DNA of 64,000 bases. Origin: Longimicrobiales bacterium. GTDB lineage: Bacteria > Gemmatimonadota > Gemmatimonadetes > Longimicrobiales > RSA9. The DNA is taken from contig JAWODW010000037.1 in the NCBI GenBank assembly GCA_046483065.1, positions 1,779 to 65,778 of the forward strand. Direction: 5' to 3'. Below are positions 12,351 to 40,449 of this stretch, in pieces (the first letter of the stretch is position 1; each line of letters starts with the position of its first letter). The position numbers and the translations under genes are program-made. A model generated the notes under the pieces. It was not told the origin of the DNA, did no database searches, and saw only the letters and a program-made list of their open reading frames with translations.

Positions 12351-13466
12351 ATGAGCTGGATGCGCCTGGTGGCCATGGCCCGGAAGGAGTGGCTCCAGCT
12401 CCGGCGTGACCCCCGGAGCATGACGCTGGCGTTCGTGCTACCGGTCCTCATGCTGCTCTTCTTCGGCTACGCCATCACGTGGGACGTGAAGGACCTGGAT
12501 CTGGTGGTGCTGGACCAGGACCGGACGGCCCGGAGCCGAACGCTCATCGAGGCGTTCGGCGCCAGCGGCTACTTCACCGTGGTGGACCGCCTCGACTCCT
12601 ACGGCCAGGTGGCCGATGCCGTGGGGCGGGGCAACGCCGGCTCGGTGCTGGTCATCCCGCCGGGCTTTGCCCGGGACCTTGCGGCGGGCCGGGAGGCACC
12701 AGTGCAGCTCCTGCTGGACGGCGCCGACGCCAACAGCGCCACCATCGCCTTCAACTACGCCGATGCCATCGTGGATCGGTGGTCCCGGGACGCAGTCCTC
12801 CAGGGCCGGGATCTGCGGCTCCCGCTCACGGCGGAGGTCCGGACCTGGTACAACCCCACGCTGTCGAGCCGGAACATGATCGTGCCGGGACTCATCTCGG
12901 TGATCATGATGACCATCGCCGCCATGCTCACGGCGCTGACCATCGCCCGGGAGTGGGAGCGGGGCACCATGGAGCAGCTGGTCTCGACGCCGGCCACGAA
13001 GCTCGAGATCCTCATCGGGAAGCTGGTCCCGTACGTGGTCATCGGGCTGCTGGACGTGGGGCTCATCGTTCTGGCGGGGCTGTTCATTTTCGGGGTTCCG
13101 TTCCGGGGCCCGGTGGTGGTGTTCTTCGCCCAGACCTTCCTCTTCCTGGTGGGCGCGCTGGGCCTCGGCATGCTGATCTCGGCGGCGGCCAAGACCCAGT
13201 TCCTGGCCACGCAGGTGGCGCTCATCGCTACCCTCCTGCCGGCCATGCTCCTGAGCGGGTTCCTCTTCGAGATCGAGGCCATGCCGGAAGTGCTCCAGGC
13301 CATCACGTACCTGGTCCCGGCCCGCTACCACGTGGTGGTGGCCCGGGGGATCATGCTCAAGGGCGTGGGGCCCGGCGTGCTCTGGATCCAGAGCGTCTTC
13401 ATGATCGTCTTCGCCGTGGTGGGGATCGGGCTGGCGGCACGGGTCTTCAAGAAGGAGGTGGCGTGA
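12351..13466 (+). CDS. ABC-2 type transporter permease
   Basis: Start MSWMRLVAMARKEWLQLRRDP at ATG 12351. Large periplasmic loop after TM1 followed by five more TM helices, typical of YbhS/YbhR. Confidence 0.88.
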   Translation: MSWMRLVAMARKEWLQLRRDPRSMTLAFVLPVLMLLFFGYAITWDVKDLDLVVLDQDRTARSRTLIEAFGASGYFTVVDRLDSYGQVADAVGRGNAGSVLVIPPGFARDLAAGREAPVQLLLDGADANSATIAFNYADAIVDRWSRDAVLQGRDLRLPLTAEVRTWYNPTLSSRNMIVPGLISVIMMTIAAMLTALTIAREWERGTMEQLVSTPATKLEILIGKLVPYVVIGLLDVGLIVLAGLFIFGVPFRGPVVVFFAQTFLFLVGALGLGMLISAAAKTQFLATQVALIATLLPAMLLSGFLFEIEAMPEVLQAITYLVPARYHVVVARGIMLKGVGPGVLWIQSVFMIVFAVVGIGLAARVFKKEVA

Positions 13467-14623: not shown

Positions 14624-14819
14624 GCGACTGGGGGATGATCCGGGTCGTTCTCGGTTCGCGGTGGAGTCCGCCATGCCCCGGCGGAGTCAGACTGGGGGAC
14701 TGGGTGGATCGCGCGAGGTTGTCGGCCGCAATCCCCCAGTCCCCCAGTCGGGGATCAGAGAGGAAGGCCGGGACAAACCATGCAACACAGCCGTGCCGCG
14801 AACCACATCCCCCAGTCGC
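14624..14819. repeat. Nested inverted-repeat element of the GACTGGGGGA family
   Basis: Outer arms GCGACTGGGGGAT (14624..14636) / ATCCCCCAGTCGC (14807..14819). Inner arms GACTGGGGGACTGGG (14690..14704) / CCCAGTCCCCCAGTC (14735..14749). All four are perfect reverse complements. Related copies are at 1091..1108 and 35170..35182. Confidence 0.85.
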
Positions 14820-14875
14820 GGCTGCCTCAGGAGGCCAAAGCGAACGCCGCCTGCGCCCCGAACGTCCGGGCCGCC

Positions 14876-15766
14876 CTACAGCCGGAACCCGCGCAGCAGT
14901 CGCTTCTCCTTCTCCCCCTCGATCTCGGCTTCCAGCTCGATGTACGGCTCGAGTCCGCTCCCCTTGAGCTTCTCCCGGAAGAGCTGATCGAGCTGGAAGA
15001 CGCCGGCGGAGTTGGTCATCTCGATGACCAGCCGGATCGGCTTCTCGCTCCCCTCCTGGATGTGGACCTGCTCGATGGCGGCGGCCGAGACGGAGTGGAT
15101 GCTGGCGGCGCTCTCGCGCTCGAAGGGGATCCGGGAGCGGCCCTTGGCCATGTCCAGGGCGTCGGCGATGCGGACGATCCCGGCCTCCACGGTGAGGGGT
15201 CTCCCGCCGGAGCGATGGGCGATGATGGCGTGGAGCGTCTCGCTCCGAACGATGGTGGCTTCGGCCACGTCGTACTCGTCGGCCAGCAGCTCGATGAGCT
15301 TGGGTTGGGCCACGAACAGGGAGAAGCCCTCGTGGTCGGCCCGGTGGATGGACATGCCCAGGTCGTGGAGGAGGGCGGCCAGCGCCACCACTACCTCGGC
15401 GTCATCGGTGGTCAGCCCGTGGTCCTTCACCACGCTGGGCTCCACGCCGGCCTTCACCAGGAGCCGGAAGAGCCGCACGGCTATGTTGGTCACGATCTTC
15501 ACGTGCACGGGCCCGTGGTCGGTCATGCCGAGGCGGTTGATGGCCGTGACGTTGGCGGCGGTCCAGAGGGCGTAGAGCTCGTCGTCGTCGTTGACCCGAT
15601 CCATGATCCGGGCGAGACGGTCGTTCCCCTTGGTGGGCAGCCGGATGACCACGCGGCGCTCGAGGCGCTCGGCCAGGGTGCTCGGGAAGTCGTCAACGTC
15701 GGGATCCACGGCGTCGGGCCCCACGGCGTCGGGCCCCACGGGTCCCGCGTTCTGCTCGTCGCTCAC
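14876..15766 (-). CDS. HD-domain metal-dependent phosphohydrolase
   Basis: HGPVHVKIVTNIAVRLF ... ALLHDLGMSIHRADHE (H...HD motif). Start taken as GTG 15766, forming a GTGA overlap with the purK stop. The rest of ORF 14876..16378 is antisense shadow of purK. Confidence 0.8.
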   Translation of the reverse strand: MSDEQNAGPVGPDAVGPDAVDPDVDDFPSTLAERLERRVVIRLPTKGNDRLARIMDRVNDDDELYALWTAANVTAINRLGMTDHGPVHVKIVTNIAVRLFRLLVKAGVEPSVVKDHGLTTDDAEVVVALAALLHDLGMSIHRADHEGFSLFVAQPKLIELLADEYDVAEATIVRSETLHAIIAHRSGGRPLTVEAGIVRIADALDMAKGRSRIPFERESAASIHSVSAAAIEQVHIQEGSEKPIRLVIEMTNSAGVFQLDQLFREKLKGSGLEPYIELEAEIEGEKEKRLLRGFRL

Positions 15767-16860
15767 GGGCGGGCCCCTTCCAGCTCCCGGAGCTGCCGGA
15801 CCGTCTCCCGTACCACGGCCGGGTCGGGGTGTCGCACGGTCATGTGCCCCACCTTCCGACCGGGTCGGGGCTCCTTCCGGTAGAGGTGGAGGTGGACGTG
15901 GGGGTGGGCCAGGACGTCCGCGGTGTCGGGCACGGCGCCGATGAGGTTCACCATGGCCGCGTGCCCGCGCATGGCCGTGGAGCCCAGGGGTAGCCCGAGG
16001 GTAGCCCGGACGTGGTTCTCGAACTGGCTGGTCTCGGCGCCCTCGATGGACCAGTGGCCCGAGTTGTGGACCCGGGGCGCCATCTCGTTGGCCAGGAGCC
16101 GGTCGCCGACCTGGAACAGCTCGATGGCCAGCACGCCCACGTAGTCCAGCGCCTCCAGGACCCGGGTGGCGTACCCTTCGGCCCGGGTCTGCAGCGCCGG
16201 CTCCAGGTCGGGCGCCGGCGCGTAAGAGACCCGGAGGATTCCGTCCTCGTGGACGTTCTCCGGCAGCGGGTAGAACGCCATGGCCCCGTCGGGGTGGCGG
16301 ACCGACAGGATCGAGAGCTCCCGGCGGAATTCGACGAATCCTTCGAGGAGCAGCGGCACGCCGCCCACCGCGTCCCATGCGGCGTCCACGTCGTCGGGGG
16401 TCCGGATCACCGCCTGGCCTTTCCCGTCGTAGCCGAAGCGCCGGGTCTTGAGCACGGCCGGCAGCCCCACCCGGTCCACGGCGGCCCGGAGGTCGTCGAG
16501 GGTGTCGGCGGCGGCGAAGGGTGCGGTCTCGATGTCGTGGTCGCGGAAGAACGTCTTCTCAGTGAGTCGGTCCTGGGAGACCTCGAGAGCCCGCCGGCCC
16601 GGGCGGACGGGGACGCGGTCGTCGAGGTGCTCGAGGGCGAACGCGTCCACGTTCTCGAACTCGTAGGTCACCGCGTCGAGGTTGGTGACGAACCGGTCGA
16701 GAGCATCGGGGTCGTCGTAGCGCTCGGCCAGGACCTCGGCCACTTCTGCGGAGGCCGTGGGGTCCTTCGGGTCCAGCAGCCGGCAGCGCACGCCCAACGG
16801 GTAGGCGGCCAGCGCCATCATGCGTCCGAGCTGGCCGCCGCCCAGGATTCCGAGACGCAT
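15763..16860 (-). CDS. purK: N5-carboxyaminoimidazole ribonucleotide synthase
   Basis: [20 protein letters not shown]-terminus, ATP-grasp core. Lies directly downstream of purE with overlapping stop/start. Confidence 0.92.
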   Translation of the reverse strand: MRLGILGGGQLGRMMALAAYPLGVRCRLLDPKDPTASAEVAEVLAERYDDPDALDRFVTNLDAVTYEFENVDAFALEHLDDRVPVRPGRRALEVSQDRLTEKTFFRDHDIETAPFAAADTLDDLRAAVDRVGLPAVLKTRRFGYDGKGQAVIRTPDDVDAAWDAVGGVPLLLEGFVEFRRELSILSVRHPDGAMAFYPLPENVHEDGILRVSYAPAPDLEPALQTRAEGYATRVLEALDYVGVLAIELFQVGDRLLANEMAPRVHNSGHWSIEGAETSQFENHVRATLGLPLGSTAMRGHAAMVNLIGAVPDTADVLAHPHVHLHLYRKEPRPGRKVGHMTVRHPDPAVVRETVRQLRELEGARP

Positions 16861-17357
16861 CACTCCTCCGACGGGTCCGGGTGGCTCAGCACGCGCTCGG
16901 TCTGGGCCGCGCGATACGCGTCGAGGGCCTCCCGGATCTCCGGGTGCTTGTTGGACAGGATCGACGCCGCCAGGAGCGCCGCGTTCACCGCGCCGCTCCG
17001 CCCGATGGCCAGCGTGCCCACGGCCACGCCCCGGGGCATCTGGACGATGGAGAGGAGAGAGTCGACGCCGTTCAGCACCCGGCTCTTCACCGGCACGCCC
17101 AGCACCGGGACCGTGGTCTTCGCCGCCGTCATCCCCGGCAGGTGCGCCGCGCCGCCGGCCCCGGCGATGATGACCTCGAGCCCCCGCTCCCGGGCCGAGT
17201 TGGCATACTCATACAGCAGGTCGGGCGTCCGGTGCGCCGAGACCACGCGCTTCTCGAACCAGACGCCCAGCTCGTCCAGCGTCTCCGCCGCGTGACGCAT
17301 GGTCTCCCAATCGGAGGTGGAACCCATGATCAGCCCCACCAGCGGTGTCTTCGACAT
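16860..17357 (-). CDS. purE: N5-carboxyaminoimidazole ribonucleotide mutase
   Basis: [23 protein letters not shown]...SAHRTPD...[14 protein letters not shown]...VLGVPV are classic PurE motifs. Start ATG 17357. Confidence 0.95.
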
Positions 17358-17479
17358 GGCCTCTTCCCGTTCGGTTGGCGTGAACGCGTAACCTAGGATT
17401 CCCGGCGGCGACTTACAACAACCGCGGCGGCCGCTCCGGGAGGGGGCTCCGGGCGCCTCCTCCGGCGGTCCGCCCCCGG

Positions 17480-17890
17480 TCAGTCCGGGTACTCGAACGT
17501 CAGCGGCGTCTCTATGTCGGGGTGGATGGAGCGGTGGACGGGGCAGTGGGCGCCGACCTTCTCGAGGCGCTCGCGCTGCTCGGGCGAGAGCCCCGGCGGC
17601 ATGCGGATGACCAGGGGCAGTGCTGCGATCCGGCGCGGGTCGGCGGCCATATGCTTCTCCACCCGGAACGAGGCCTCGCCGAAAGGGATGCCCTGATTCT
17701 GCGCGGCGATGGCCATGACGGTCACGATGCAGCTGCCCAGCGAGGTGGCCACCAGGTCGGTGGGAGAGAAGGAGCTGCCGTCGCCGTGGTTGTCGAGCGG
17801 GGCCGCGGTTTCGAACTCGGTGCCCGAGAGCTCGTGGCGCACCGATACCTTGAGGTCCCCGGTGTAGCGTCCTGTAATCACGACTGACAT
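17480..17890 (-). CDS. OsmC/Ohr family peroxiredoxin-like protein
   Basis: [18 protein letters not shown] and [10 protein letters not shown] (two conserved Cys). Start ATG 17890 preceded by GGAGAGGAG. Confidence 0.85.
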
Positions 17891-18030
17891 GCGCTCTCCT
17901 CTCCTGGCGGTCGGTGCGGTTCCGTGGTTCCGTGAGCCTGCCGGGCCGTGCTGACGTATATTGCATGGACCCGACACGCCGGCTCTAATGTACCGGGCTC
18001 ACCCACGCACATGCGAAGCACTGCATCACG

Positions 18031-21000
18031 TTGACGATCCTCGATCGGCTGCTCCCCGACTATCCGGAAGACCAGAAGGCCGAGCGGCACCAGCTCCTCG
18101 GTCTCATGGGGATGTTCTTCCTCGTGGTCACGGCGGTGGGGATCCTGAAGCCGGTGCGGAACTCGCTGGCGCTCTCCGGGCTCGGCGACGGCGAATTCTA
18201 CCGGGTGTACCTGGTGAGCGCCGTGGTACTCCTCTTCGTCCCGTTCTACAACCGGCTGGCGGACCGGGTGGGGTGGGGTGCGCTGGTTCCGGCCATGGCG
18301 GTGTTCTTCGGGCTGAACCTGGTAGTGTTCCGGTTCGCGTACACGGAGGGCAGCACGCTGCTGGGGCTGGTCTTCTACGGCTGGTACGACCTGTTCGCGG
18401 CGGCGCTGGTGACGCAATTCTTCGTGGCGACGCAGCTGCTGCTGAACGCCCGGAGCGCCAAGAGCGCGTACCCGCTGGTGATCGGCGGGGGCGCGCTGGG
18501 TGCCATGCTGGGCGGCGGGATCGCCGGGTTCCTGGCGGAGGCCATCGGCACGCCGAACCTGCTGCTGCTGGGGGCGGTGTGCATCCTGGGGTTCGGGCTG
18601 GGGATCCCCCTCGTGTGGCCCGGCGAGGAGATCACGGCCGTCCAGCGGCAGCGGTCCCGGGGCGTGCGACGGAAGGAGACGCTGTCGAAGGGCGAAGTCC
18701 GCCGGCTCCTGGGCAACTCCCACGTCCGGCTTATCGCGGTGAGCGTGCTGATCGTGGTCCTGGCAAAGCAGCTGGTGGACTACGAGTTCAACACGCTCAC
18801 CAAGCAGATTTTCGTGACGGAGGACGCGGTCACCGAGTTCCAGGGATACGTCAACCTGGCGACCCAGTGGCTACCCCTGGTCTCGGTGGTGGCGCTCCGG
18901 CCGCTCCTGAAGCGGTGGGGGCTCGGCGCCATCGTGTTCATCCTCCCGGGGCTGATCTTCCTGAGCAGCTTCGTGGCGGCGGCCTTCTTCTCCATCTGGA
19001 CGGTGATCGCCGTGCGGACTTCGGACACCATGTTCCGGTACTCGGCGGAGCGGGCGAGCCGGGAGATCCTCTACGTCCCGATCCCCGAGGAGATCAAGCT
19101 CAAGGCGAAGACGTACATCGATGTGGGCGTGGAGAAGGGGCTCGGAAAGGCACTGGCCGCCGGCGTCATCGCGCTCCTGGTGGAGGTGCTGCACCTCGGT
19201 CTCGAGCAGATCGCGTGGGTGGTGGTGGCGATGGCCGCGGCGTGGGTCGGGATCACGATCCTCGTCCGCCGGGAGTACGTCCGCACGCTCGCCCGCTCGA
19301 TCCGGGGCCGGTTCGCCAGCTTCCAGGGGCTGAGCGCACTCTCGGATGCCAGCACCCAGGAGGTGGTCCGCCGGTCGCTGCGCAGCGACGACCCGGTGCA
19401 GGTCTCCTTCGCCCTGGACCTGGTGGACCAGAGCGCGGGCACCGACACCCGCCCGGTGGCGGAAGCGCTCCACGAGCTGCTGGAGCACAGCAACCCGGAC
19501 ATCCGTCACAAGGCGCTGCGGATCCTGACGGAGGACCGGGACCCGGACTCCGTGGACCCGGAGCGGGTCCAGCCGCGGCTCCGGGACCGGGTCCGTCGGG
19601 TCCGCGAGCAGGCGGTGCTGGCGCTCCTTTCGGCGGCGCCGGATCGGCAGAAGGAGCTGGTGCGGGGGCTGCTGGCGTCTCCGCACTCGGAGGTCCGGAC
19701 GGCGGCGCTTGCCGTCCTGGCCCGGGGCGACGTGGCGGCCCGGGGCGACGAGCTCCTGGGCGCGTCCTTCCTGGACGAGCGCTGGGAGCAGGCGCAGGCC
19801 GGGCACCGGGACGCCCGGGTGGAGCTCGCCCTGGCCGCCGGGGTGCACCGGTCGCATCCCCGGGCCGTGGAGGTCCTGGAGGCGCTCCTCGGCGACCCGG
19901 ACCCGGTGGTGGCGTCGGCGGCGCTCCGGAGCGCCGGGCTGCTGGACCGGACCGAGCTCCGGACGGCCATGGTGGAGGGGTTGAAGAAGCCGGGGACCCG
20001 GCAGGCGGCCCGGGACGCTCTGGTGGAGCAGGGCCAGCGGGCGGTGGAGTGTCTGGCGGACGCGCTCCTGGACGAGTCGTCCCACCCCACCATCCGACGC
20101 CACATCCCGTCGGTCCTGGCCCGGATGCCCAACCGGGCGGCGGCGGACGCCATGCTCCACAGCGTGGTGGCGCCGGAGACCGACCAGCTGCTGGACTACC
20201 GGACGCTGAAGGCGCTGAGCCAGATCCGGACCCGGGACCCATCGCTGGAGTTCGACCGGGAGATGGTAATGGCTTCCATCCGGCGTGAGGTGGAGGCCGC
20301 CGTCCGCTACCACCGGGCGCGCCGGTGCATCCGGGAGCTCGAGCTCGACGGTCGCGCCACGTCGCTCCTCCGGAAGTCGCTGACGGAAGCGTGGTCGGAG
20401 CGGCGGGAAGGTGTGTTCCGGCTCCTGGGGCTGCTGTACCCGTCCGACGAGATGTACCGGGTGTACCTGGCCATCAGCAGCGGGGAGCGGACCCCGCGGG
20501 CCAACGCCATCGAGTGGCTGGAAGAGACGCTGGACCGGGGCCTCTTCCAGCGGATCGCACCGGTCCTGGGTGAGACGGCGCCGCTGGATGAGCTGGACCC
20601 GTTCGTCTCCCTGGGATCGCTGCTCCGGGACGGCGACCCGTGGATCGCCCGGACGGCCGTGGCGGCCACGGCGGAGATCGAGCAGCCCTGGAGTCGGGCG
20701 GTACTGCATGATATCATCGGGTCGGAGTCCCACGGCGACGCCGGCGAGCAGGCCGACCGCCGGCTCCGGCGGGCAACGGCGAGCGAGGAAGGCACCATGG
20801 ATCTCATCGAGAAAGTCTTTCTGCTACAGAAGATCGACCTGCTGCAGGACGCCCGGAGCGCGCACCTGGCGCTGCTGGCGTCCATCGCCGAGGAGGTGGA
20901 GGCGGACCCCGGCACCGTGCTGATCCGTCAGGACGAGCCCACCGAGGCGCTCTACATGGTCATCGACGGCAGGGTGGACCTGGAGGGCGTGGCCGGCCAG

Positions 21001-21207
21001 CAGCTCGAAGCGGGGGACAGCCAGGCGTTCGGGACCTGGGCCCTCATCGACGAGGCGCCGAGCCTCGTCACGGCCACCGTGGACGAGCCGTCGCGGCTGC
21101 TCCGCATCACGCGCAGCGACTTCTACGACCTGCTGGCGGACCACCCGGAGCTGGCCCTCGGCCTGCTCCAGGGACTTGCCCGACGCGTACGCACGCTCGT
21201 AGCCTGA
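18031..21207 (+). CDS. Fusion protein: TLC/ATP:ADP-antiporter-like polytopic transporter domain + HEAT-like repeats + CAP-type cNMP-binding-like domain
   Basis: TTG start. Residues 1-~430 form ~11-12 TM helices with MFFLVVTAVGILKPVRNSL-type N-terminal signature. Residues ~440-880 carry HEAT-like repeats (SNPDIRHKALRIL, HSEVRTAALAVLA, DPDPVVASAALRSAG). The C-terminus is LIRQDEPTEALYMVIDGRV...FGTWALID...LLRITRSDFYDLL. Confidence 0.7.
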   Translation: MTILDRLLPDYPEDQKAERHQLLGLMGMFFLVVTAVGILKPVRNSLALSGLGDGEFYRVYLVSAVVLLFVPFYNRLADRVGWGALVPAMAVFFGLNLVVFRFAYTEGSTLLGLVFYGWYDLFAAALVTQFFVATQLLLNARSAKSAYPLVIGGGALGAMLGGGIAGFLAEAIGTPNLLLLGAVCILGFGLGIPLVWPGEEITAVQRQRSRGVRRKETLSKGEVRRLLGNSHVRLIAVSVLIVVLAKQLVDYEFNTLTKQIFVTEDAVTEFQGYVNLATQWLPLVSVVALRPLLKRWGLGAIVFILPGLIFLSSFVAAAFFSIWTVIAVRTSDTMFRYSAERASREILYVPIPEEIKLKAKTYIDVGVEKGLGKALAAGVIALLVEVLHLGLEQIAWVVVAMAAAWVGITILVRREYVRTLARSIRGRFASFQGLSALSDASTQEVVRRSLRSDDPVQVSFALDLVDQSAGTDTRPVAEALHELLEHSNPDIRHKALRILTEDRDPDSVDPERVQPRLRDRVRRVREQAVLALLSAAPDRQKELVRGLLASPHSEVRTAALAVLARGDVAARGDELLGASFLDERWEQAQAGHRDARVELALAAGVHRSHPRAVEVLEALLGDPDPVVASAALRSAGLLDRTELRTAMVEGLKKPGTRQAARDALVEQGQRAVECLADALLDESSHPTIRRHIPSVLARMPNRAAADAMLHSVVAPETDQLLDYRTLKALSQIRTRDPSLEFDREMVMASIRREVEAAVRYHRARRCIRELELDGRATSLLRKSLTEAWSERREGVFRLLGLLYPSDEMYRVYLAISSGERTPRANAIEWLEETLDRGLFQRIAPVLGETAPLDELDPFVSLGSLLRDGDPWIARTAVAATAEIEQPWSRAVLHDIIGSESHGDAGEQADRRLRRATASEEGTMDLIEKVFLLQKIDLLQDARSAHLALLASIAEEVEADPGTVLIRQDEPTEALYMVIDGRVDLEGVAGQQLEAGDSQAFGTWALIDEAPSLVTATVDEPSRLLRITRSDFYDLLADHPELALGLLQGLARRVRTLVA

Positions 21208-21212
21208 GTCCC

Positions 21213-21692
21213 ATGGCCGATACCCCCGCACCCACGGTGATGATCGTCGATGACGAGGAGATGGTGGCGACGGCACTCCGGAGCTTCCTCGAGCTGGAGA
21301 CGTCGTACCGCATCCTGACATTCACATCACCCACACGCGCACTGGAGGAGGCCGAGTCGGAGCCGGTGAACGTGGTGATCGCCGATTTCATGATGCCCGA
21401 GATGGACGGGATCACCTTCCTGCGCCAGTTCCGGGAGATGAACCCCCGGGCCACGCGGATCCTGCTGACCGGCTACGCCGACAAGGAGAACGCGATCCGG
21501 GCCATCAACGAGGCGGGGCTGTACTACTACCTGGAGAAGCCGTGGAGCAACGAGCACCTGAAGCTCGTGATCCGGAACGGTGTGGAGCGGTCCAGCCTGT
21601 TCAACGAGCTCGACAGCCGGGTCCAGGCGCTGGAGGGCGCGCACGAGGAGCTGTTCGAGATCCGACGAAGGCTGGTCCAGGCGTTCCTGTGA
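21213..21692 (+). CDS. Stand-alone response regulator receiver protein
   Basis: VMIVDDEE...VVIADFMMPEMDG...LTGYAD...YYYLEKPW, with a short coiled-coil tail. 5 nt after the upstream stop. Confidence 0.9.
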   Translation: MADTPAPTVMIVDDEEMVATALRSFLELETSYRILTFTSPTRALEEAESEPVNVVIADFMMPEMDGITFLRQFREMNPRATRILLTGYADKENAIRAINEAGLYYYLEKPWSNEHLKLVIRNGVERSSLFNELDSRVQALEGAHEELFEIRRRLVQAFL

Positions 21693-23191
21693 GCATCAGC
21701 CCCCGGAGCTGGAGCCCGGAGGAAGCGGCGGGCGACGTGCGGCTCCACAGGCCCGTCCGGTCCCGGGCCGTCGTCGTCGGCTGGACGCTGGTGCTGGGCG
21801 CCATCTTCCGCCTGGGGCTGGGGCTGCCCCTCGACGTCCGCTTCTTCGCGCTGGCCGCGGGCTGGTTCGTGGCGGCGGCGGCAACGTTCCACTGGCTCGC
21901 CGGCCACCGCAACTCCACGGCGTTCTTCTCCGTCCGGTTCCTCCTCTTCGCCGCCGAGGTGGTGGTGGCCGCGTGGCTCGCCCATTACATCGGCGCCAGC
22001 AGCTGGCTCGCCACCCTCTTCCTCCTGCTCCCCGCCATCGAGTGGAACATGCTCTACCCCGGCGCGTGGGGGCTGGCCGGGTCGTTCTTGGCCGTCCTGG
22101 CCACGGGTGCCCTGATCGCGGGCGAGGCGCTGGGGTTCGTCCCGCCCGGCGCGCTGTTCAGCGCCATCGAGACCGGCTACTCCGACCCGTTGTACGCGGT
22201 GGGCGCGTTCCTGGTCTCGGCGTCACTCATCATCGGGCTCTCCACGGTGGTCAGCCGGTACGCGGAGGCGGGCCGGCGGAAGAGCCGGGAGCTGGAAGCG
22301 GCGAACGAGCGGCTCCGGGAGCTTTCCCGGGACGTGCAGGAGTCCCACGCCGAGCTGGAGTCGGCGTACGAGCAGCTCCAGGACACGCAGGCGGAGCTGG
22401 TGGGCTCGGCCAAGCTGGCCACACTGGGGAACCTCATCGCCGGTGTGGCCCACGAGATCAACACGCCGCTGGGCGCGCTCCACAGCAACCACTACACCAT
22501 CGCCCGGGCACTGGAGCGGCTCCAGGAGATCCTGGAAGACGAGGTGGTGGACGAGCACGAGCTGGAGGACGTGCGGCGGATCGTGAAGGCCATCGACGGC
22601 GTCACGGCCACGAACAACATGGCCGTGGACCGGATGGTGAAGCTGGTGAGCAGCCTGCGGACGTTCGGGCGGGTCGACCGCTCCGACATCGATTACGCGG
22701 ACCTCCACGGGGGCCTGGAGAGCACACTGGCGATCCTGAGCCACGAGCTGCGGCAGCGGATCGAGGTGGAGAAGGATTACGGCGACCTGCCCCGGGTGGA
22801 GTGCTACCCGAACCAGATCCACCAGGTGTTCATGAACCTTATCGTGAACGCCATGCAGGCCATGGAGGACGGCGGCACCCTGACACTGCGGACCCGGCAC
22901 GAGGGTGACGAGGTAGTGATAGAGGTACAGGACACGGGCGTGGGCATGTCCCGGGAGACCATCGACCGGATCTTCGACCCCGGCTTCACCACCAAGGGGT
23001 CGCGCATGGGGATGGGGATGGGGCTCCTGATCACGAACCGCATCGTCGACCGGCACGACGGCCGGATCGAGGTCGAGAGCGAGCCCGGCGTGGGCACCAC
23101 GTTCACCATCCGCCTCCCCGTCCGGCTGCCGGAGAAGGCCCGGACCGGTCGGGAGACCCGCCGGGAACCGACCCCCGACGGGGTCGCTTGA
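21689..23191 (+). CDS. Sensor histidine kinase with polytopic (about 6 TM) membrane-embedded sensor region
   Basis: GTG 21689 overlaps the RR stop (GTGA). H-box AGVAHEINTPLGAL. N/G boxes NLIVNAMQAM, DTGVGM, GMGMGLLI. Confidence 0.88.
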   Translation: MSISPRSWSPEEAAGDVRLHRPVRSRAVVVGWTLVLGAIFRLGLGLPLDVRFFALAAGWFVAAAATFHWLAGHRNSTAFFSVRFLLFAAEVVVAAWLAHYIGASSWLATLFLLLPAIEWNMLYPGAWGLAGSFLAVLATGALIAGEALGFVPPGALFSAIETGYSDPLYAVGAFLVSASLIIGLSTVVSRYAEAGRRKSRELEAANERLRELSRDVQESHAELESAYEQLQDTQAELVGSAKLATLGNLIAGVAHEINTPLGALHSNHYTIARALERLQEILEDEVVDEHELEDVRRIVKAIDGVTATNNMAVDRMVKLVSSLRTFGRVDRSDIDYADLHGGLESTLAILSHELRQRIEVEKDYGDLPRVECYPNQIHQVFMNLIVNAMQAMEDGGTLTLRTRHEGDEVVIEVQDTGVGMSRETIDRIFDPGFTTKGSRMGMGMGLLITNRIVDRHDGRIEVESEPGVGTTFTIRLPVRLPEKARTGRETRREPTPDGVA

Positions 23192-23222
23192 GCACCAGCG
23201 CGGCACGAAATCGAAGGGACCC

Positions 23223-24200
23223 ATGAGACCGAACAGCACGCGGCACCGCACCCCTCTGACAGTCGGGCTGGCGGCCCTCATCCTGGCCGTGGCGCCCACT
23301 GGCATCGCGGCACAGGGCAACATCCTCCACCCGCCGGACACCATCGAGAAGCGGCTGGCCCACGACGACTTCGAGATCGTGGACCGCAGGGGCTCCCGGT
23401 TCGATGGCGACCGGACGAACCGGGTGGCCATGTCGTTCGCCGACGGCACCATGATGGTGGCGAAGTGGGCGCTGGCGCCTCAGGGTGGCGAGGCGTACAA
23501 CAACAACCCGCGCTACGAGGTGGCGGCCTACGAGCTCCAGAAGCTCTTCCTGCGGCCCCACGAGTTCGTGGTGCCGCCCACCGTGTTGCGGGCCTTCGAC
23601 CTGGGCTGGTTCCGGAGCCTGGAGCCGGGCGTGCGCCCGACCTTCAATGACACCGAGTCGGTCCTGGTGGTGCTCCAGTACTGGCTCTTCGACATCGCCG
23701 GCGCCGAGTTCTGGGACCGCCGTCGGTTCGCCAGCGACTCCGTCTACGCCCGGCACCTGGCCAACTTCAACATCTTCACGTACCTGGTCCGGCACAACGA
23801 CCAGAACCAGGGAAACTACCTGATCTCCGGGATCGAGACCGACCCGCGGGTCTTCAGCGTGGACAACGGGATCGCGTTCCAGAGCAGCGTGAGCGACCAG
23901 GGCGCGAACTGGCGCCGGCTCCGGGTGGACCGGCTCCCGACCGAGACCATCGACCGGCTGCGGGAGCTGACCGAGGAGGATGTGCGCCGCCGGCTCGAGA
24001 CCGTGGCCCAGTTCCGGATCCAGCCCGATGGCACGCTCACGGCCGAGCCCACCGGCCCCGCCCGCGACCCCGGCCAGGGGATCCGTCGCTCCGACCGCGT
24101 GATCCAGCTCGGCCTGGACCGCCGGGAGATCGACGACGTGTGGCGCCGGATCCAGCGCCTGCTGGCACGCGTCGATGACGGCGACTTCGAGCTCTTCTGA
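23223..24200 (+). CDS. Signal-peptide protein with PI3/PI4-kinase (type II PI4K-like) catalytic motifs, paralogue 1
   Basis: Signal peptide ...LAALILAVAPTGIAAQG. Motifs VAKW (Lys), NNNPRYEVAAYELQKLF...VVPPTV, RHNDQNQGNYLI (catalytic loop-like) and FSVDNGIAF (DxG-like). About 45 percent identity by eye to 37512..38531. Confidence 0.65.
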   Translation: MRPNSTRHRTPLTVGLAALILAVAPTGIAAQGNILHPPDTIEKRLAHDDFEIVDRRGSRFDGDRTNRVAMSFADGTMMVAKWALAPQGGEAYNNNPRYEVAAYELQKLFLRPHEFVVPPTVLRAFDLGWFRSLEPGVRPTFNDTESVLVVLQYWLFDIAGAEFWDRRRFASDSVYARHLANFNIFTYLVRHNDQNQGNYLISGIETDPRVFSVDNGIAFQSSVSDQGANWRRLRVDRLPTETIDRLRELTEEDVRRRLETVAQFRIQPDGTLTAEPTGPARDPGQGIRRSDRVIQLGLDRREIDDVWRRIQRLLARVDDGDFELF

Positions 24201-24203
24201 GCC

Positions 24204-24644
24204 ATGGACGTGATCTTCGCAGTCGTCGCCGACGCAGCCAACGTGAGCCGGGAAGGCAAGCTCAACATCATGGGCATCTTCGACCGGGTCTTCGCCCGGA
24301 AGGTACCCGCCCGGTTCCCGCCGATGCAGCTCGTGATCCGGCTGGAAGCCGACTACGCCGAGCTCGAGACCGAGCACGCCATCCGGGTACAGCTCAGCGA
24401 CCCGGACGACGAGTCCGTCTTCGATATCGACGGCAGCTTCACCCCCCGGGGCGGCCAGCCCGGCCAGAAGGTCCCGGTCAACCACGTCCTCCAGCTCGGG
24501 AACCTGCCGCTCCAGCGTACGGGCACCCACCGGATCCTCATCTGGATCGATGGCGACCTGAAGCGGGAGCTGCCGATCCACGTGGTCCAGGCCCCCGACG
24601 CCCCGCCCCCGGGCGCCGACGGCGGCGATACACTGGTCCACTAG
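24204..24644 (+). CDS. Hypothetical small soluble protein
   Basis: ATG 3 nt after the upstream stop. High GC3. MDVIFAVVADAANVSREGKLNIMGIFDRV N-terminus. No family assigned with confidence. Confidence 0.7.
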   Translation: MDVIFAVVADAANVSREGKLNIMGIFDRVFARKVPARFPPMQLVIRLEADYAELETEHAIRVQLSDPDDESVFDIDGSFTPRGGQPGQKVPVNHVLQLGNLPLQRTGTHRILIWIDGDLKRELPIHVVQAPDAPPPGADGGDTLVH

Positions 24645-24810
24645 CCGGTCCACCGGTCCACTGGACGATCCCCCGGGCACCGGCCGGTCCATGGGGGCAG
24701 CAGCTCTCTCCGTTCGGCAGCGCCGGACCCGCGCCACCGGACGGACGAGTTCTTGCACTTCTCTTCATCGGACCGGCGGAGCGAAACGCTTCCTGAACAA
24801 GGAGTTGGCC

Positions 24811-25179
24811 GTGGTATTCGGTGAGATCATCCTGGCATTCGCGATCGGGCTCCTCCTGGCGCTGATCTTCGCGTACGGCCTCGGACGGACGGGGCCGTGG
24901 GGTGGGTTCGTCTGGTTCTTCCTGGTGGTCTTCCTCACCGCCTGGGCCGTGGGGCTCTGGGTCGAGCCCGTGGGGCCGGCACTCTGGGGCGCTGCATGGG
25001 TGCCGATCCTCTTCGGGGCACTCTTTGTGGCGCTCCTGGTAGCAGCCATACCGCCGAGGCCCGCTCGCCCCGCGGATGTCGCCGAGCCCGATGCGGTCGG
25101 GACCGCCGCCGCCGTGGGACTCTTCTTCTGGCTCCTGGTGGTGATCCTGCTCATCGCCATCATCTTCGCCTACGTCTGA
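24811..25179 (+). CDS. Hypothetical small integral membrane protein (about 4 TM)
   Basis: GTG 24811 lies 6 nt after GGAG. Hydrophobic throughout (VVFGEIILAFAIGLLLALIFAY..., LFFWLLVVILLIAIIFAYV). Followed by a strong hairpin. Confidence 0.6.
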   Translation: MVFGEIILAFAIGLLLALIFAYGLGRTGPWGGFVWFFLVVFLTAWAVGLWVEPVGPALWGAAWVPILFGALFVALLVAAIPPRPARPADVAEPDAVGTAAAVGLFFWLLVVILLIAIIFAYV

Positions 25180-25275: not shown

Positions 25276-28491
<3,216 letters not shown>

Positions 28492-28595
28492 GGTCACGCG
28501 TCCCTTGTGCGGGGGTCGAAGTCTGCCTATGTGCGGGAAGGGCCGGACGCCCAAAGTGGGAAGGGATCCGGGATGATGCCAGGGGATTGGTGATC

Positions 28596-37511: not shown

Positions 37512-38531
37512 CTAGAACGTCTCCAGCTCGCCGGCGTCTACACGGTCCAGCACGGTGCGGATCCGGGCCCACAGCTCATCCAGCTCCAGGTTCGTGAGCC
37601 CGAACTGGATCATGCCTTCCTCCCGGGGCACGCCCCGGTTCTCGTCGATCTTGGCCGTGGGCGGGACCCGTTCCAGGCGGCCATCCTCGCGCACCCGGAA
37701 CTGGGCCACCACGTAGAGCGCGTCGTCCAGCTCGCCCCGGGTCAGCCGCCGCAGCCGCTCGACGGCCTCGCCGGGGACGCGGTCCACATGCAGGTCCCGC
37801 CACACCGTACCCCGCGGACTCGCCGGACTGCGGAACGCCACCCCGTTGTCGACGGCATAGAGCCTGGGCGGTCCCCGGGTGGAGACCAGCACGTTGCCCG
37901 GGTTGGAGTCCACGTGCCGGATCAGGTGCGTGAAGAGGTTCAGGTAGCCGAGGCGCCGGGCGTACGCCGGGTCCCCACCGAGGCGTGCGGTGTCCGGCGC
38001 CTCGGCGGCGTCCACGTTCTGGAGCCAGTACTGCACGGCCACCAGCACCGAGCCCGTTCCCTCGAACGTGGGCTCCGCCTCCGGGTCGAGTTGACGGTAC
38101 GCGGTTAGTGGTAGCTCCCGGATCACGGTGGGCGGGACCACCCAGTCGGCCTCGTCGAAGAAGAGCTTCTGGAAGGCGTACGCCGCCGCCTCGTAGCGGG
38201 GCTGGTTGTTGATGGCGAACCCGCCCGGCGGCGCCTTGGCCCACTTCACCCGGATGCGCCGCCCATCGCTGAACTGGATGTCCGTCTGCTGGGTCCGATC
38301 GCCCTGCCACCGGTTGTCGCGGATCCCGACGATCTGGAACGGGTCGCCGGCCAGGCGGGCCTCGACGGCCGTGGGGGAGAAGACGTAGTTGGGGCCGTAC
38401 GTGGACGCCTGCGGATCGCTCGTCGGGAGAGCGCTGTCCGGGCGGCTCCCGCCCTGGGCCACAGCGGGAGCCGCCACAACGGCGGCCGCCACCGCCAGGA
38501 CCGAGAGGCGTGTTCGGGAGAATGTTCGCAT
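37512..38531 (-). CDS. Signal-peptide protein with PI3/PI4-kinase (type II PI4K-like) motifs, paralogue 2
   Basis: Signal peptide MRTFSRTRLSVLAVAAAVVAAPAVAQG. Motifs VKWAKAP, NNQPRYEAAAYAFQKLF...VVPPTV, RHVDSNPGNVLV, YAVDNGVAF. C-terminal FGLTNLELDELWARIRTVLDRVDAGELETF matches paralogue 1. Confidence 0.65.
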   Translation of the reverse strand: MRTFSRTRLSVLAVAAAVVAAPAVAQGGSRPDSALPTSDPQASTYGPNYVFSPTAVEARLAGDPFQIVGIRDNRWQGDRTQQTDIQFSDGRRIRVKWAKAPPGGFAINNQPRYEAAAYAFQKLFFDEADWVVPPTVIRELPLTAYRQLDPEAEPTFEGTGSVLVAVQYWLQNVDAAEAPDTARLGGDPAYARRLGYLNLFTHLIRHVDSNPGNVLVSTRGPPRLYAVDNGVAFRSPASPRGTVWRDLHVDRVPGEAVERLRRLTRGELDDALYVVAQFRVREDGRLERVPPTAKIDENRGVPREEGMIQFGLTNLELDELWARIRTVLDRVDAGELETF

Positions 38532-38649
38532 GGGGGCAACATACCGGCGGCCCGGGGGCCGCGGCCAGTATCTTGCCCCGGGCCGCCGTCACAGGCCAGA
38601 TTATGGACACTTCCCTCGCAACACGTCACTCATCAGGCAGACCGTCGCC

Positions 38650-40449
38650 ATGACCGCCCCTAATGTGGACCCGCGTTCCATGGAGGTCGAGGGCCTGGCG
38701 CTCGATCCCGGCGAGCAGAGAGCGGTCCGGGCCCGGCAGCTGCGCACGCTGAACACCCGCACGGTCCCCCTCCTGCGGCTCCTGGGCGCCAACTTCCTGG
38801 TGTTCGGCGCCGTGGTGCACAACAGCCTCATCCTGGGCCGGATCGACTGGACGGCGATCCTCGTCTACACCGCCTTCGTCGAGCTCTACTGTCTGGCCAG
38901 CTGGTGGGCCCTCGACCGATGGTACGACCCCGATGCGTCGCCGGACCTGGCACTCCTCTTCCTGGTGGCGGACCTCGTCCCCATGGCCATGGCCGTCTAC
39001 CTCACCGGCGCCGACGCCAGCTGGATCTTCTGGGTCTTCCTCGTCCGGGTGGTGGACCAGACCCACACGTACTTCATGCGGGCGTTCATGTTCACCTGGC
39101 TCGCCACGCTGGCCTATGCATCGGTGATCGGGTGGGCGGTGGTGGTGGACGGGGCCACGGTCAACCTCCCCGGCGAGATCGCCAAGCTCATGTTCCTGGT
39201 CCTGGCGGGGTCGTACATCTCGTTCACCGCCCGCACATCCGAGCGGGTCCGATCGCGCCTGGCCGACGCCATCCGCACGGCTCGACAGTCGGTGACCGAG
39301 CTGCGGGTGAAGTCGCGACAGCTGGAGCAGGCCCGGGAGGCCGCCGAGGCCGGGAGCCAGGCAAAGAGCCAGTTCCTGTCCCGGGTCAGCCATGAGCTGA
39401 GGACCCCGATGAACGCCATCCTCGGCTTCGCCCAGCTCCTCCAGTTGGACGAGATGACCGAGGAGCAGCAGGCCCACGTCGACGAGATCCTGACGGGCGG
39501 CCGCCACCTGCTCGACATCATCAACGAGGTCATGGACATCGCCCGGGTCGAAACAGGGTCCCTGGCCAAGGAGGTGGAGCCGATCCGGCTGGGGCCCGTG
39601 CTCCGGGAGGGGCTGGAGCGGGCGCAGCCCACCGCCGAGCGCCGGAACGTGACGCTCCCGGAGCGGCCGCCGCCGGGCTCGGACGCCTGGGTCATGGGCA
39701 GCCGGCGGAAGGTGCGGCAGGTCTTCGCCAACCTCCTCGACAACGCCATCAAGTACAACAGCTCGCCGGGCACCGTGTCGCTGGCCTGCGGGCACCGGGA
39801 CGGGACCCTACGGGTGAGCGTGACCGACACGGGCCCGGGGCTCCCAGCCGGCCGGATCGAAGCGGCGTTCACCCCCTTCGAGCGCCTCGGCGCGGAGAAG
39901 ACCGACCCCGACGGCACGGGGCTCGGCCTCCCGGTGGCACGATCCCTGGTGGAAGCCATGAACGGACGGATCGGCGTGGACTCGGAGCCGGGCTCCGGGA
40001 GCACCTTCTGGTTCGAGCTCCTGGAGGCCGAGCCCCCATTGCAGGAGGAGGCCAGAGTGGTGGACGCGGAGACCACCGGACCCCTGGTGCTCTACGTAGA
40101 CGACAAACCGGAAAACGTCGTGCTCGTCCGCCGGATCCTGGCCCGGCGCCCCACGGTCCGCCTGATCTCGTCACCGCTGGGGCTGAAAGGGCTGGAAACG
40201 GCACGGCAGCGCCGACCCGACCTGATCCTCCTCGACCTGGAACTCCCCGACATCGCCGGGCGAGAGGTGCTGACCCGGCTGCAGGACGACGTCGCCACCC
40301 GCGAGATCCCCGTGGTGGTGGTGAGCGCCGAGGCGGAACCGAGCAAGGTGGAGCGGCTCCTGGCCGAGGGCGCACGGGCCTACTTCGTCATGCCCTACGA
40401 CGTGGCGAAGTTCCTCGACGTGGTCGACGACCTGCTCGACCTGCGGTAG
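38650..40449 (+). CDS. Hybrid sensor histidine kinase (polytopic membrane sensor + HisKA/HATPase + C-terminal receiver)
   Basis: Start MTAPNVDPRS at ATG 38650. About 6 TM helices. H-box FLSRVSHELRTPMNAI, DTGPGL, GLGLPVA. Receiver VLYVDDKPENV...LILLDLELPDIAG. Confidence 0.88.
   Translation: MTAPNVDPRSMEVEGLALDPGEQRAVRARQLRTLNTRTVPLLRLLGANFLVFGAVVHNSLILGRIDWTAILVYTAFVELYCLASWWALDRWYDPDASPDLALLFLVADLVPMAMAVYLTGADASWIFWVFLVRVVDQTHTYFMRAFMFTWLATLAYASVIGWAVVVDGATVNLPGEIAKLMFLVLAGSYISFTARTSERVRSRLADAIRTARQSVTELRVKSRQLEQAREAAEAGSQAKSQFLSRVSHELRTPMNAILGFAQLLQLDEMTEEQQAHVDEILTGGRHLLDIINEVMDIARVETGSLAKEVEPIRLGPVLREGLERAQPTAERRNVTLPERPPPGSDAWVMGSRRKVRQVFANLLDNAIKYNSSPGTVSLACGHRDGTLRVSVTDTGPGLPAGRIEAAFTPFERLGAEKTDPDGTGLGLPVARSLVEAMNGRIGVDSEPGSGSTFWFELLEAEPPLQEEARVVDAETTGPLVLYVDDKPENVVLVRRILARRPTVRLISSPLGLKGLETARQRRPDLILLDLELPDIAGREVLTRLQDDVATREIPVVVVSAEAEPSKVERLLAEGARAYFVMPYDVAKFLDVVDDLLDLR

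Follow-up and report, generated by a model that had tools for sequence, protein, structure and literature searches.

The window analysed here is a 64,000-nucleotide stretch of DNA from a soil bacterium of the phylum Gemmatimonadota. Six open reading frames, termed g1 to g6, lie between positions 18031 and 25179, all co-directional on the plus strand:

18031..21207, plus strand: g1, NTT-HEAT-cNBD fusion protein, 1058 aa, TTG start
g1, aa 1-430: transporter domain, 12-helix NTT/TLC type
g1, aa ~440-915: HEAT solenoid, predicted to be cytoplasmic
g1, aa ~925-1058: CAP-type beta-barrel with a remodelled ligand pocket
21213..21692, plus strand: g2, single-domain response regulator, 159 aa
21689..23191, plus strand: g3, histidine kinase, 500 aa
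23223..24200, plus strand: g4, kinase-fold protein with predicted export, 325 aa
g4, aa 1-30: predicted signal peptide, Sec type with an AxA|Q site; a type II PI4K-like kinase domain comes after it
24204..24644, plus strand: g5, DUF6941 protein, 146 aa
24811..25179, plus strand: g6, small four-helix membrane protein, 122 aa, GTG start

Gaps of 5 nt (g1-g2), 31 nt (g3-g4), 3 nt (g4-g5) and 166 nt (g5-g6) separate the genes, and g2 and g3 overlap by 4 nt (GTGA), the start codon of g3 lying over the stop codon of g2. The layout and spacings given in a first-pass annotation of this DNA were all reproduced exactly. Promoter or terminator signals for the cluster were not detected.

The product of g1 had been described as a TLC-like transporter fused to HEAT repeats and an atypical nucleotide-binding barrel, and Pfam, profile search and fold comparison all agree on these domains. 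Pfam scores were 32.9 bits for TLC (cut-off 21, match limited to the C-terminal half of the model), 61.5 bits for HEAT_2 and 48.1 bits for cNMP_binding, the latter two also above their cut-offs. An NTT relationship of the N-terminal domain was found by HMM, by profile search, which matched AtNTT1 (9j3j, E 6e-13), and by Foldseek, where the AF2 model (pLDDT 81.5, 12 transmembrane helices) best matched AtNTT1 (9j3m, TMt 0.65) and then C. pneumoniae NTT1. With the ATP/ADP translocases of plastids, Chlamydia and Rickettsia (NTT/TLC, TC 2.A.12; 9j3j/9j3m, 9j3n) g1 shares the 12-helix fold (TMt 0.63-0.65), while identity is about 16%, the TLC match covers just half of the model and g1 has a cytoplasmic HEAT and cNBD-like tail of 630 aa. 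Transport by AATP1 requires four charged residues (PMC4256464). Positions K155, E245, E385 and K527 of AtNTT1 align to R58, D120, D250 and K373 of g1, all of them charged; the last three are invariant in the g1 family and the K155-equivalent position varies between K, R and Q. The cNMP cassette of g1 reads FGTWALIDEAPSLVTA. Here Thr1002 stands in place of the canonical Glu and Ser1011 in place of the canonical Arg, whose replacement had been suspected before; both residues are invariant in 48 g1 homologues.

The identical three-domain architecture is found in the NTT-HEAT-cNBD class, which was catalogued together with NTT-HEAT proteins in 2017 by Major, Embley and Williams, function unknown (PMC5381601). 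The same study states that these proteins are widespread in free-living bacteria, that transport has never been demonstrated for any NTT-HEAT protein and that the NTTs characterised so far work natively as importers, and it proposes cAMP control of ATP uptake; linkage to a regulator and kinase pair, an exported kinase-fold protein and a phosphatase is not part of that account (PMC5381601). In contrast to the proposed cAMP control, g1 has other residues in place of the Glu and Arg that contact cAMP, and its gene context points to the periplasm. g1 may carry out ATP/ADP exchange. Since a free-living host makes its own ATP, net flow via g1 would then run outward, against the direction known from physiology.

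As had been called earlier, g2 is a receiver-only response regulator. It consists of a receiver (Response_reg, 89 bits) and a C-terminal helix, and Pfam found no output domain in it. The acidic pocket is readable in the sequence (DD13-14, D58, T86, K108), and among NCBIfam models g2 best matches the receiver portion of a NosR-family REC/c-di-GMP-phosphodiesterase regulator. The neighbouring g3 scores 98 bits for HATPase_c and 24.6 bits for HisKA, just below the cut-off of 26.9. Hydropathy analysis revealed six hydrophobic helices in residues 27-190, almost loop-free and followed by DHp and catalytic domains, in keeping with its description as a membrane-embedded histidine kinase. Counts out of 46 refer to species-representative Gemmatimonadota genomes in which 4 kb or more of sequence follows the g1 homologue. 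The g3 membrane domain is present in ten of these, only in the window's own clade, and the orthologous histidine kinase elsewhere (35 of 45 pair-bearing loci) is short (250-314 aa), soluble and sensor-less. The membrane domain is therefore a recent addition in this clade, and because it is confined there, the earlier suggestion that g3 reads the output of the exported kinase is not supported.

The signal peptide previously assigned to g4, assessed here from hydropathy and the -3/-1 rule, keeps its features across 58 homologues: 57 have an h-region, 56 carry R/K in the n-region, and 55 each show A/G at -1 and Q at +1. For g4, whose mature protein has no Cys, PI3_PI4_kinase scored 20.0 bits, below the cut-off of 27.1; this is the sole model matched by 36 of the 58 family members. 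The AF2 model (pLDDT 91.2) has human PI4KIIalpha as its best Foldseek match in the PDB (4hnd/4hne, E 2e-7, TM 0.47), which bears out the type II PI4K-like fold proposed before. Next in line were Hydra Fam20 (fourth-best), PI4KIIbeta, ATM, PINK1 and Vps34. The catalytic-loop and DFG-like motifs of g4, HNDxNxGNxL and VDNGxAF, are like those of the human PI4KII enzymes; identity, however, is 16-17%, and g4 has a signal peptide and no palmitoylation-type Cys motif. All 58 homologues share E99, D193, N195, G197, N198, D214, N215 and G216, among them the catalytic Glu, Asp, Asn and Asp, and at least 90% also retain the catalytic Lys, K81. It is very unlikely in our view that g4 is a pseudokinase or scaffold, or that it is membrane-anchored with its kinase domain facing the cytoplasm. 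The sub-threshold Pfam score, the lack of any solved kinase found by sequence with the g4 profile and a signal peptide deduced from hydropathy and the -3/-1 rule would fit such a protein, but the invariant E99, D193, N198 and D214 together with K81 argue against inactivity, and the positive charges that precede the hydrophobic segment in 56 of the 58 homologues and the conserved AxA|Q site argue against a cytoplasmic location. The fusion proteins described below, in which the domain comes after an extra hydrophobic helix, speak in the same direction.

The last two genes differ in standing from the first four. g5 matches DUF6941 (103.6 bits, Pfam) and has no signal peptide; a homologue follows g4 in three of the 46 genomes and in the loci L004 and L075, and g5 is thus an occasional, sporadic passenger of the cluster. 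g6 has its own AAGGAG-N6-GTG start and encodes four hydrophobic helices, a family match was not found, and no homologue adjoins the cluster in 154 related loci. It is probably a separate unit outside the conserved cluster. Of the six-gene set originally presented as a unit, g1 to g4 are kept widely, while g5 recurs in 3/46 relatives and g6 in 0/46.

The gene order itself proved to be conserved among relatives. The regulator and histidine kinase pair follows the g1 homologue in 45 of the 46 genomes, with g2 directly downstream of g1 in 45, and a g4 homologue lies beside g1 in 44, in three different gene orders. Flanking genes are wholly unlike between distant cluster members, and the cluster therefore moves as a unit. 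Conservation of this arrangement across 46 species-level genomes with unrelated flanks is far beyond chance. The usual fifth partner is a PPP-family phosphatase with predicted export, encoded after g4 in 33 of the 46 genomes and absent from the window. This partner had been overlooked in the first-pass annotation. The N-termini of the phosphatases are signal-like in most relatives examined. Their closest solved relative is the cold-active protein-tyrosine phosphatase of Shewanella (PPP family; 1v73, 2z72, 2zbm; E 1.6e-37), from which they differ by an additional domain at the N-terminus, about 140 aa long and containing a conserved GEYGL motif. As the partner of g4 is a protein-phosphatase-like enzyme, g4 may be something other than a lipid kinase. 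The g1-centred set is best explained as a single conserved functional module of Gemmatimonadota, centred on a putative NTT-type nucleotide exchanger.

A reverse search starting from g4 yielded 53 metagenomic loci; in about 31 of them, g1-RR-HK or a g1-like gene is located immediately upstream. One sub-clade has a g1-like gene for 818 aa that overlaps g4 by 4 nt, without two-component genes between them; g1 is also followed directly by g4 in loci of the L060 and L137 type, which lack two-component genes. In L111, on a contig of 40-50% GC, a 928-aa HEAT-repeat protein with a sub-threshold TLC match is paired with a g4 homologue. About 22 of the 53 loci (roughly 40%) have no NTT neighbour, and neither does the window's own g4 paralogue at 37512-38531. 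Some of the loci without NTT neighbour border ArnT/PMT-like GT-C glycosyltransferases (L134, L146) or else different envelope genes.

A direct connection is seen in two independent proteins, P0264 and P0390 (66% identity over the full length), which unite an NTT domain and a g4 kinase domain in one chain. The order is NTT (~12 hydrophobic segments), an Arg-rich linker, one extra hydrophobic helix, i.e., a 13th membrane helix, and the kinase domain. Given the extra helix, the kinase domain would lie opposite the cytoplasmic NTT C-terminus, i.e., on the periplasmic side. P0390 was called as a single gene on a 40.9-kb contig (L155); two-component genes are not annotated among the called genes downstream of it, and upstream the locus ends at the contig edge. 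The NTT domains of both proteins belong to another subfamily, with Gly and Asp at the E245 and K527 equivalents, so that their substrate may not be ATP. Two further proteins, P0241 and P0245, combine a signal peptide, g4 and Metallophos in one chain.

These fusions bear on the possibility that the genes are merely co-regulated, the pair and g1 forming one unit and g4, with or without the phosphatase, modifying lipid A, glycan or lipid in the envelope with a donor independent of g1. The g4 loci without NTT neighbour, some of them next to glycosyltransferase or other envelope genes, and a sugar-bound Fam20 among the best fold matches are compatible with this, yet we consider it unlikely: without a functional link, direct NTT-g4 fusions would be difficult to account for, g4 and the exchanger gene are neighbours in 44 of the 46 genomes, and we know of no alternative phosphate donor for the g4 fold. 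The earlier idea that exchanger and exported kinase cooperate gains strong comparative support from this linkage, from the 4-nt overlap in the sub-clade and from P0264 and P0390; the mechanism is what we infer from them.

Our best reading, tentative and held at somewhat less than even odds, is that exported ATP feeds a periplasmic kinase and phosphatase pair. The 12-helix domain of g1 would trade cytoplasmic ATP for periplasmic ADP, probably also phosphate, as class I NTTs do, and so provide the phosphate donor for g4 in an otherwise ATP-free compartment. g4 would phosphorylate an envelope substrate (protein, lipid or glycan), and in most relatives the exported phosphatase would undo this mark. 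Together, the two enzymes would regenerate exactly ADP and phosphate, both taken back by the exchanger. The HEAT solenoid and the non-canonical cNBD-like barrel may gate the exchanger from the cytoplasm, and the histidine kinase and output-less regulator may act on this tail by protein contact, not transcription. In the window's clade, the histidine kinase would have gained its six-helix membrane domain and the phosphatase would have been lost. Against ATP export stand the half-length TLC match, the variable K155 equivalent and the different subfamily of the fused NTTs, as well as the g4 homologues without NTT neighbour and the phosphatase missing in the window. Periplasmic ATP would, moreover, leak via porins.

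UhpC/UhpB, DctA/DcuS and BceAB/BceS are co-sensing systems of a transporter and a histidine kinase that end in a DNA-binding regulator. Like these, the cluster encodes a sensor-poor histidine kinase beside a transporter-like membrane protein; unlike them, g2 has no output domain and g1 has its own large cytoplasmic regulatory tail. g1 could accordingly take up or sense nucleotides, or a related anion, from outside (a 'transceptor'), with the pair as its signalling output, as for UhpC with UhpB. The exported kinase-fold protein and the phosphatase would then serve to process or capture the external substrate instead of using exported ATP. We regard this as rather unlikely. A histidine kinase that is sensor-less in most relatives and always adjoins g1, the native import by characterised NTTs (PMC5381601), nucleotide-cleaving members of the phosphatase family such as ApaH, and a tail that could serve as a signalling platform all suit it. 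The invariant catalytic residues of g4, however, argue for phosphotransfer over binding alone, a kinase outside the cytoplasm still requires a phosphate donor, the NTT-TM13-kinase fusions have no two-component partner in the protein, and g1-g4 loci without two-component genes occur.

ATP export to a periplasmic kinase would follow a logic familiar from eukaryotes, where the Fam20 kinases of the secretory pathway are supplied by the ER ATP/ADP exchanger AXER/SLC35B1. In both cases an antiporter would feed a kinase in a compartment without ATP synthesis, and Hydra Fam20 is itself close to g4 in fold; transporter family and kinase subfamily differ, and in the present case exchanger and kinase are linked genetically or fused. 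To our knowledge, no bacterial counterpart of the Fam20/AXER arrangement has been described. The NTT-kinase fusions and the linkage suggest, short of proof, that some bacteria deliver ATP to the space outside the inner membrane.

The six open reading frames lie where the first-pass annotation had placed them, with the same spacings of 5, -4, 31, 3 and 166 nt, on a contig of 70% GC from a metagenome-assembled genome of Longimicrobiales (Gemmatimonadota):

18031-21207 (+), g1, NTT-HEAT-cNBD fusion protein of 1058 aa
21213-21692 (+), g2, response regulator
21689-23191 (+), g3, histidine kinase
23223-24200 (+), g4, kinase-fold protein of 325 aa with predicted signal peptide
24204-24644 (+), g5, DUF6941 protein
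24811-25179 (+), g6, small membrane protein

The stop codon of g2 and the start codon of g3 overlap in the sequence GTGA, and an AAGGAG box precedes the GTG start of g6. A scan for promoters and terminators yielded no signal above shuffled expectation, which leaves the operon boundaries putative. Convergent with the cluster, a gene for a Sortilin/BNR-repeat protein of 1092 aa whose N-terminus is signal-like (25276-28554, minus strand) is syntenic in the close relatives L001, L002 and L004 and not in distant ones.

A relationship of the N-terminal domain of g1 to the TLC family had been claimed on first inspection and is borne out by several lines of evidence. The Pfam model PF03219 (TLC) matches residues 181-412 with 32.9 bits (cut-off 21), with the match confined to the C-terminal half of the model (positions 234-487), and with 23.9 bits the NCBIfam AAA superfamily model stays far under its cut-off. 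A profile built from ten g1-type N-domains matches the cryo-EM structure of Arabidopsis NTT1 (E 6e-13), while the single g1 N-domain sequence found no match in the PDB; among PDB sequence searches, NTT structures were thus reached only by family profiles. In the AlphaFold (AF2) model of g1, built from 48 homologues (pLDDT 81.5), 12 transmembrane helices are followed by a HEAT solenoid (~440-915) and a beta-barrel (954-1027). The best Foldseek match is Arabidopsis NTT1 (9j3m, E 8e-8, TMt 0.65, 491 columns), NTT1 of Chlamydia pneumoniae reaches a TMt of 0.63, and the list includes channels and transporters bearing C-terminal cNBDs, e.g., SLC9C1. The predicted 12-helix fold of g1 is superimposable on solved NTTs. 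Residues K155, E245, E385 and K527 of Arabidopsis AATP1/NTT1, which are K71, E161, E301 and K443 in the solved chain (offset 84), are important for transport (PMC4256464). The equivalents of E245, E385 and K527 in g1 are D120, D250 and K373, all invariant among the 48 homologues, and K155 aligns to R58, a position that varies between K, R and Q in the family and lies in a weak part of the alignment (6.4 bits).

Behind the transporter domain, the HEAT_2 model scores 61.5 bits with its best-scoring stretch at residues 478-564, alphaRep/HEAT profile matches reach to about residue 727, and cNMP_binding (PF00027) matches residues 956-1038 with 48.1 bits (cut-off 27.5). The tail also yields profile matches to structures of PKA-R, Epac and CRP. 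In proteins that bind cAMP or cGMP, the contacting glutamate and arginine sit in a phosphate-binding cassette of the form FGE...PR[ST]A. The corresponding stretch of g1 reads FGTWALIDEAPSLVTA, and neither canonical residue was found in g1 or in any of the 48 homologues. The doubt expressed earlier about cAMP or cGMP as the ligand of g1 was justified, because the residues that would hold these nucleotides are replaced by Thr1002 and Ser1011, both invariant in the family. The order of NTT, HEAT repeats and cNBD along the polypeptide, as seen in Pfam matches, profiles and model, fits the NTT-HEAT-cNBD architecture. A 2017 survey listed proteins of this build as a monophyletic class that is widespread and has no assigned function, and left the role of NTTs in free-living bacteria open (PMC5381601).

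The next two genes encode a two-component pair. The g2 product is a receiver (Response_reg, 89 bits) with an intact acidic pocket and without an output domain. That of g3 has six hydrophobic helices almost free of loops, followed by DHp and ATPase domains; it contains the H-box AHEINTP and matches HATPase_c with 98 bits, with HisKA (24.6 bits) falling just under the cut-off of 26.9. A further response regulator and histidine kinase pair, distantly like g2 and g3 (35-36% identity), is encoded at 53010-54034 on the minus strand.

The family of g4 is small: of 1.84 billion cluster representatives, 671 match at E<=1e-3. Its signal peptide was judged by hydropathy and position counts (n-, h- and c-regions, small residues at -3 and -1) across 58 homologues: an h-region is present in 57 of them and an R or K in the n-region in 56, while A or G at -1 and Q at +1 each occur in 55. 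The protein is accordingly predicted to be exported by the Sec route. The catalytic lysine, the DxxxxN loop and the DxG motif are all present (K81, D193, N198, D214). E99, D193, N195, G197, N198, D214, N215 and G216 are invariant in the alignment of 58 members, and K81 is kept in at least 90% of them. The first-pass annotation had called the protein type II PI4-kinase-like. Fold and catalytic motifs speak for this: with an AlphaFold model of pLDDT 91.2, the top three Foldseek matches in the PDB are human PI4KIIalpha (E 2e-7, TM 0.47), followed by sugar-bound Hydra Fam20, PI4KIIbeta, ATM, PINK1 and Vps34. The Pfam score speaks against it, as PF00454 (PI3_PI4_kinase) reaches 20.0 bits and remains below the cut-off of 27.1. 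This is the sole Pfam model matched in the family, by 36 of the 58 homologues at E<=0.01 (best 2e-6), and the g4 profile found neither PI4K nor any other kinase among PDB sequences; kinases were found by fold comparison only. As the type II PI4-kinase fold is nearest and the sequence score lies under the Pfam cut-off, we treat g4 as a putative kinase-fold enzyme related to, but outside, the type II PI4-kinases.

Several relatives of g4 deserve separate mention. A paralogue with 47% identity and without an NTT neighbour is encoded in the window at 37512-38531 on the minus strand, head-to-head with a gene for a hybrid histidine kinase (38389-40449, plus strand; HisKA, HATPase_c, receiver) and adjoining a gamma-glutamyltranspeptidase gene; a paralogue occupies the same position in the related loci L002 and L004. 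In the 644-aa homologue P0324, a g4-family kinase domain follows a signal peptide and a domain resembling class A beta-lactamases (Beta-lactamase2, 55 bits). Two related loci look like cases of g4 decay: in L006 (~12550-12810) only short g4-like remnants lie between the histidine kinase and phosphatase genes, and in L064 (~14650-18300) the two halves of g4 are about 2.8 kb apart, possibly through an insertion.

Close relatives retain the order g1, response regulator, histidine kinase, g4, but they also share the entire regional synteny and are thus not independent evidence. Distant g1 homologues (~50% identity) reside in wholly different surroundings and still have the two-component genes directly downstream. 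A scan with one genome per species gave 66 loci, which with a single exception carry the label Gemmatimonadota, and gene orders were counted in the 46 of these that continue for 4 kb or more past the downstream end of the g1 homologue.

Gene order downstream of the g1 homologue (RR, response regulator; HK, histidine kinase; phosphatase, PPP-type enzyme).
RR-HK-g4-phosphatase: 25/46 loci
RR-HK-g4, HK with membrane domain: 7/46 loci
RR-HK-phosphatase, g4 convergent on the other strand: 5/46 loci
RR-HK-g4-DUF6941, HK with membrane domain: 3/46 loci
RR-HK-g4, soluble HK: 3/46 loci
RR-HK-phosphatase, without g4: 2/46 loci
g4-phosphatase, without two-component genes: 1/46 loci

The two-component pair follows g1 in 45 of the 46 loci and g4 is present in 44, while the phosphatase occurs in 33; a g6 homologue was not found beside the cluster in any related locus. 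These counts show a conserved module of g1, the two-component pair and g4, which a phosphatase with predicted export usually joins. Among the histidine kinases, a membrane domain is restricted to the clade of the window (10 of 46 loci), the other kinases having 250-314 aa and starting right after the response regulator. The earlier idea that a membrane-embedded kinase reads a periplasmic output is unsupported, because this domain is a clade-specific addition. The constancy of the two-component pair is also what the main rival explanation would draw on, in which g1 is an importer or a sensor that signals through the sensor-less histidine kinase. This explanation appears rather unlikely to us. 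A correlation between g1 and g4 divergence across loci was dropped as evidence, since shared phylogeny alone explains it.

The phosphatase is a calcineurin-like metallophosphoesterase with the signature GDxHG / GDxxDRG / GNHE, and most relatives examined have a signal-like N-terminal segment before a conserved GEYGL motif. Its nearest solved structure is the cold-active protein-tyrosine phosphatase of Shewanella (E 1.6e-37), and the ApaH and PrpA models match weakly. A search across the window for a homologue gave none at E<=0.01. The partner of g4 thus resembles protein phosphatases, and a lipid substrate for g4 is not implied.

The neighbourhood was also surveyed starting from g4, in the best 80 metagenomic loci, of which about 53 retained at least 1 kb upstream. 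A histidine kinase gene precedes g4, as in the full cluster, in 23 of the ~53, and in 7 a shorter g1-like gene without two-component genes lies directly upstream, as in L137 (5551-8007), where its 818-aa product contains HEAT and cNBD and the gene has a 4-nt overlap with g4. On the L111 contig (40-50% GC), a g4 homologue is paired with a HEAT-repeat protein of 928 aa whose TLC match stays below threshold. About 22 of the ~53 loci have no NTT neighbour, and the contexts there include Ser/Thr kinases, MacB/FtsX transporters and ArnT/PMT-like glycosyltransferases. Divergent genes for the latter (GT-C type) are located upstream of g4-phosphatase pairs without an NTT neighbour in L134 (5805-7481, minus strand), where the gene is directly adjacent, and in L146 (5841-7292, minus strand), where one small gene lies between. 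These neighbours hint that the substrate may be a glycan or lipid A.

Single polypeptides join the same partners. In the representative search, P0241 and P0245 combine a signal peptide, a g4 domain and a Metallophos domain in one chain, and P0264 combines TLC with g4. With P0264 as query, P0390 was found (66% identity over the full length), a single gene call of 802 aa on a 40.9-kb contig. The P0264 sequence runs from about 12 hydrophobic transporter segments through an Arg-rich stretch and one further hydrophobic helix to a kinase domain that keeps all catalytic motifs, and P0390 shows the same layout. The C-termini of NTTs are cytoplasmic, which would make the kinase domain of P0264 and P0390 periplasmic and anchor it to the transporter. 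The NTT domains of both belong to another subfamily than g1, with the nearest named members in Gammaproteobacteria, and in it the equivalents of E245 and K527 are Gly and Asp. Linkage of g4 to NTT-type transporters thus recurs, and in two cases the two are fused. That the genes share co-regulation only has to be weighed against these fusions, and we deem it unlikely.

Other NTT-family transporters also carry additional domains. Members of an NTT subfamily with its nearest named relatives in gammaproteobacterial MAGs (alignment A4: P0391, P0392, P0393, P0407, P0421, P0423, P0434, P0440, P0467, P0473 and P0485) possess a 13th helix and, outside the cytoplasm, a domain of ~330 aa in which the motifs IGNTDWS..HN and PYDFDFSG occur. 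The Pfam CotH-kinase model scores 21.2 bits for P0434 and 17.2 bits for P0391, the two scanned, at a cut-off of 23.8; the domain had no match in the PDB, and hhalign against the g4 family gave a probability of 4% only. A CotH-like identity of the domain is therefore tentative; if it is confirmed, a second kinase type would be joined to an NTT on its outer side. He_PIG putative Ig domains are usually extracellular, and P0406 and about 50 similar NTT-family transporters of ~540 aa end in one (37.8 bits).

From gene linkage and fusions we propose that g1 would act as an exchanger that sends ATP to the periplasm and takes back ADP and phosphate, which would be the combined products of a kinase/phosphatase cycle. 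The HEAT and cNBD-like tail, the output-less response regulator and the histidine kinase would gate this flow from the cytoplasm. The proposal as a whole is plausible and put forward tentatively. The closest parallel to such a supply is the eukaryotic ER/Golgi exchanger that feeds kinases of the secretory pathway. A defence-system origin was considered and rejected: PADLOC returned generic cNBD/HEAT matches for g1, weak receiver matches for g2 (E 6e-5 and 4e-4) and no match of its defence models to g3, g4, g5 or g6. A phage origin was likewise set aside, PHROGs giving nothing useful for g4 to g6. The literature searched on periplasmic ATP and kinases and on NTT-HEAT proteins contained no description of the cluster; its parts belong to known families, and their assembly is without a described counterpart there.

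Textbooks present NTT nucleotide transporters as tools of energy parasites and plastids, and the periplasm is generally considered free of ATP, for which reason machines of the envelope draw their energy from the inner membrane. It is possible, if doubtful, that certain bacteria supply their periplasm with energy on purpose: a regulated ATP/ADP(+Pi) exchanger of the NTT type would feed an exported kinase/phosphatase pair, and ATP-dependent phosphorylation beyond the cytoplasmic membrane would be reversible. Outside Gemmatimonadota the principle may hold as well; there are fusions of NTT, 13th helix and kinase, and gammaproteobacterial NTTs whose periplasmic domain has sub-threshold CotH-kinase similarity. 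A conserved, sometimes fused pairing of an NTT exchanger with an exported kinase that keeps its catalytic residues would provide the first genetic support for an ATP supply dedicated to the periplasm and would also speak for reversible phosphorylation within the envelope of bacteria. Two questions thereby become testable, namely what role NTTs play in free-living bacteria and whether the periplasm truly lacks ATP.
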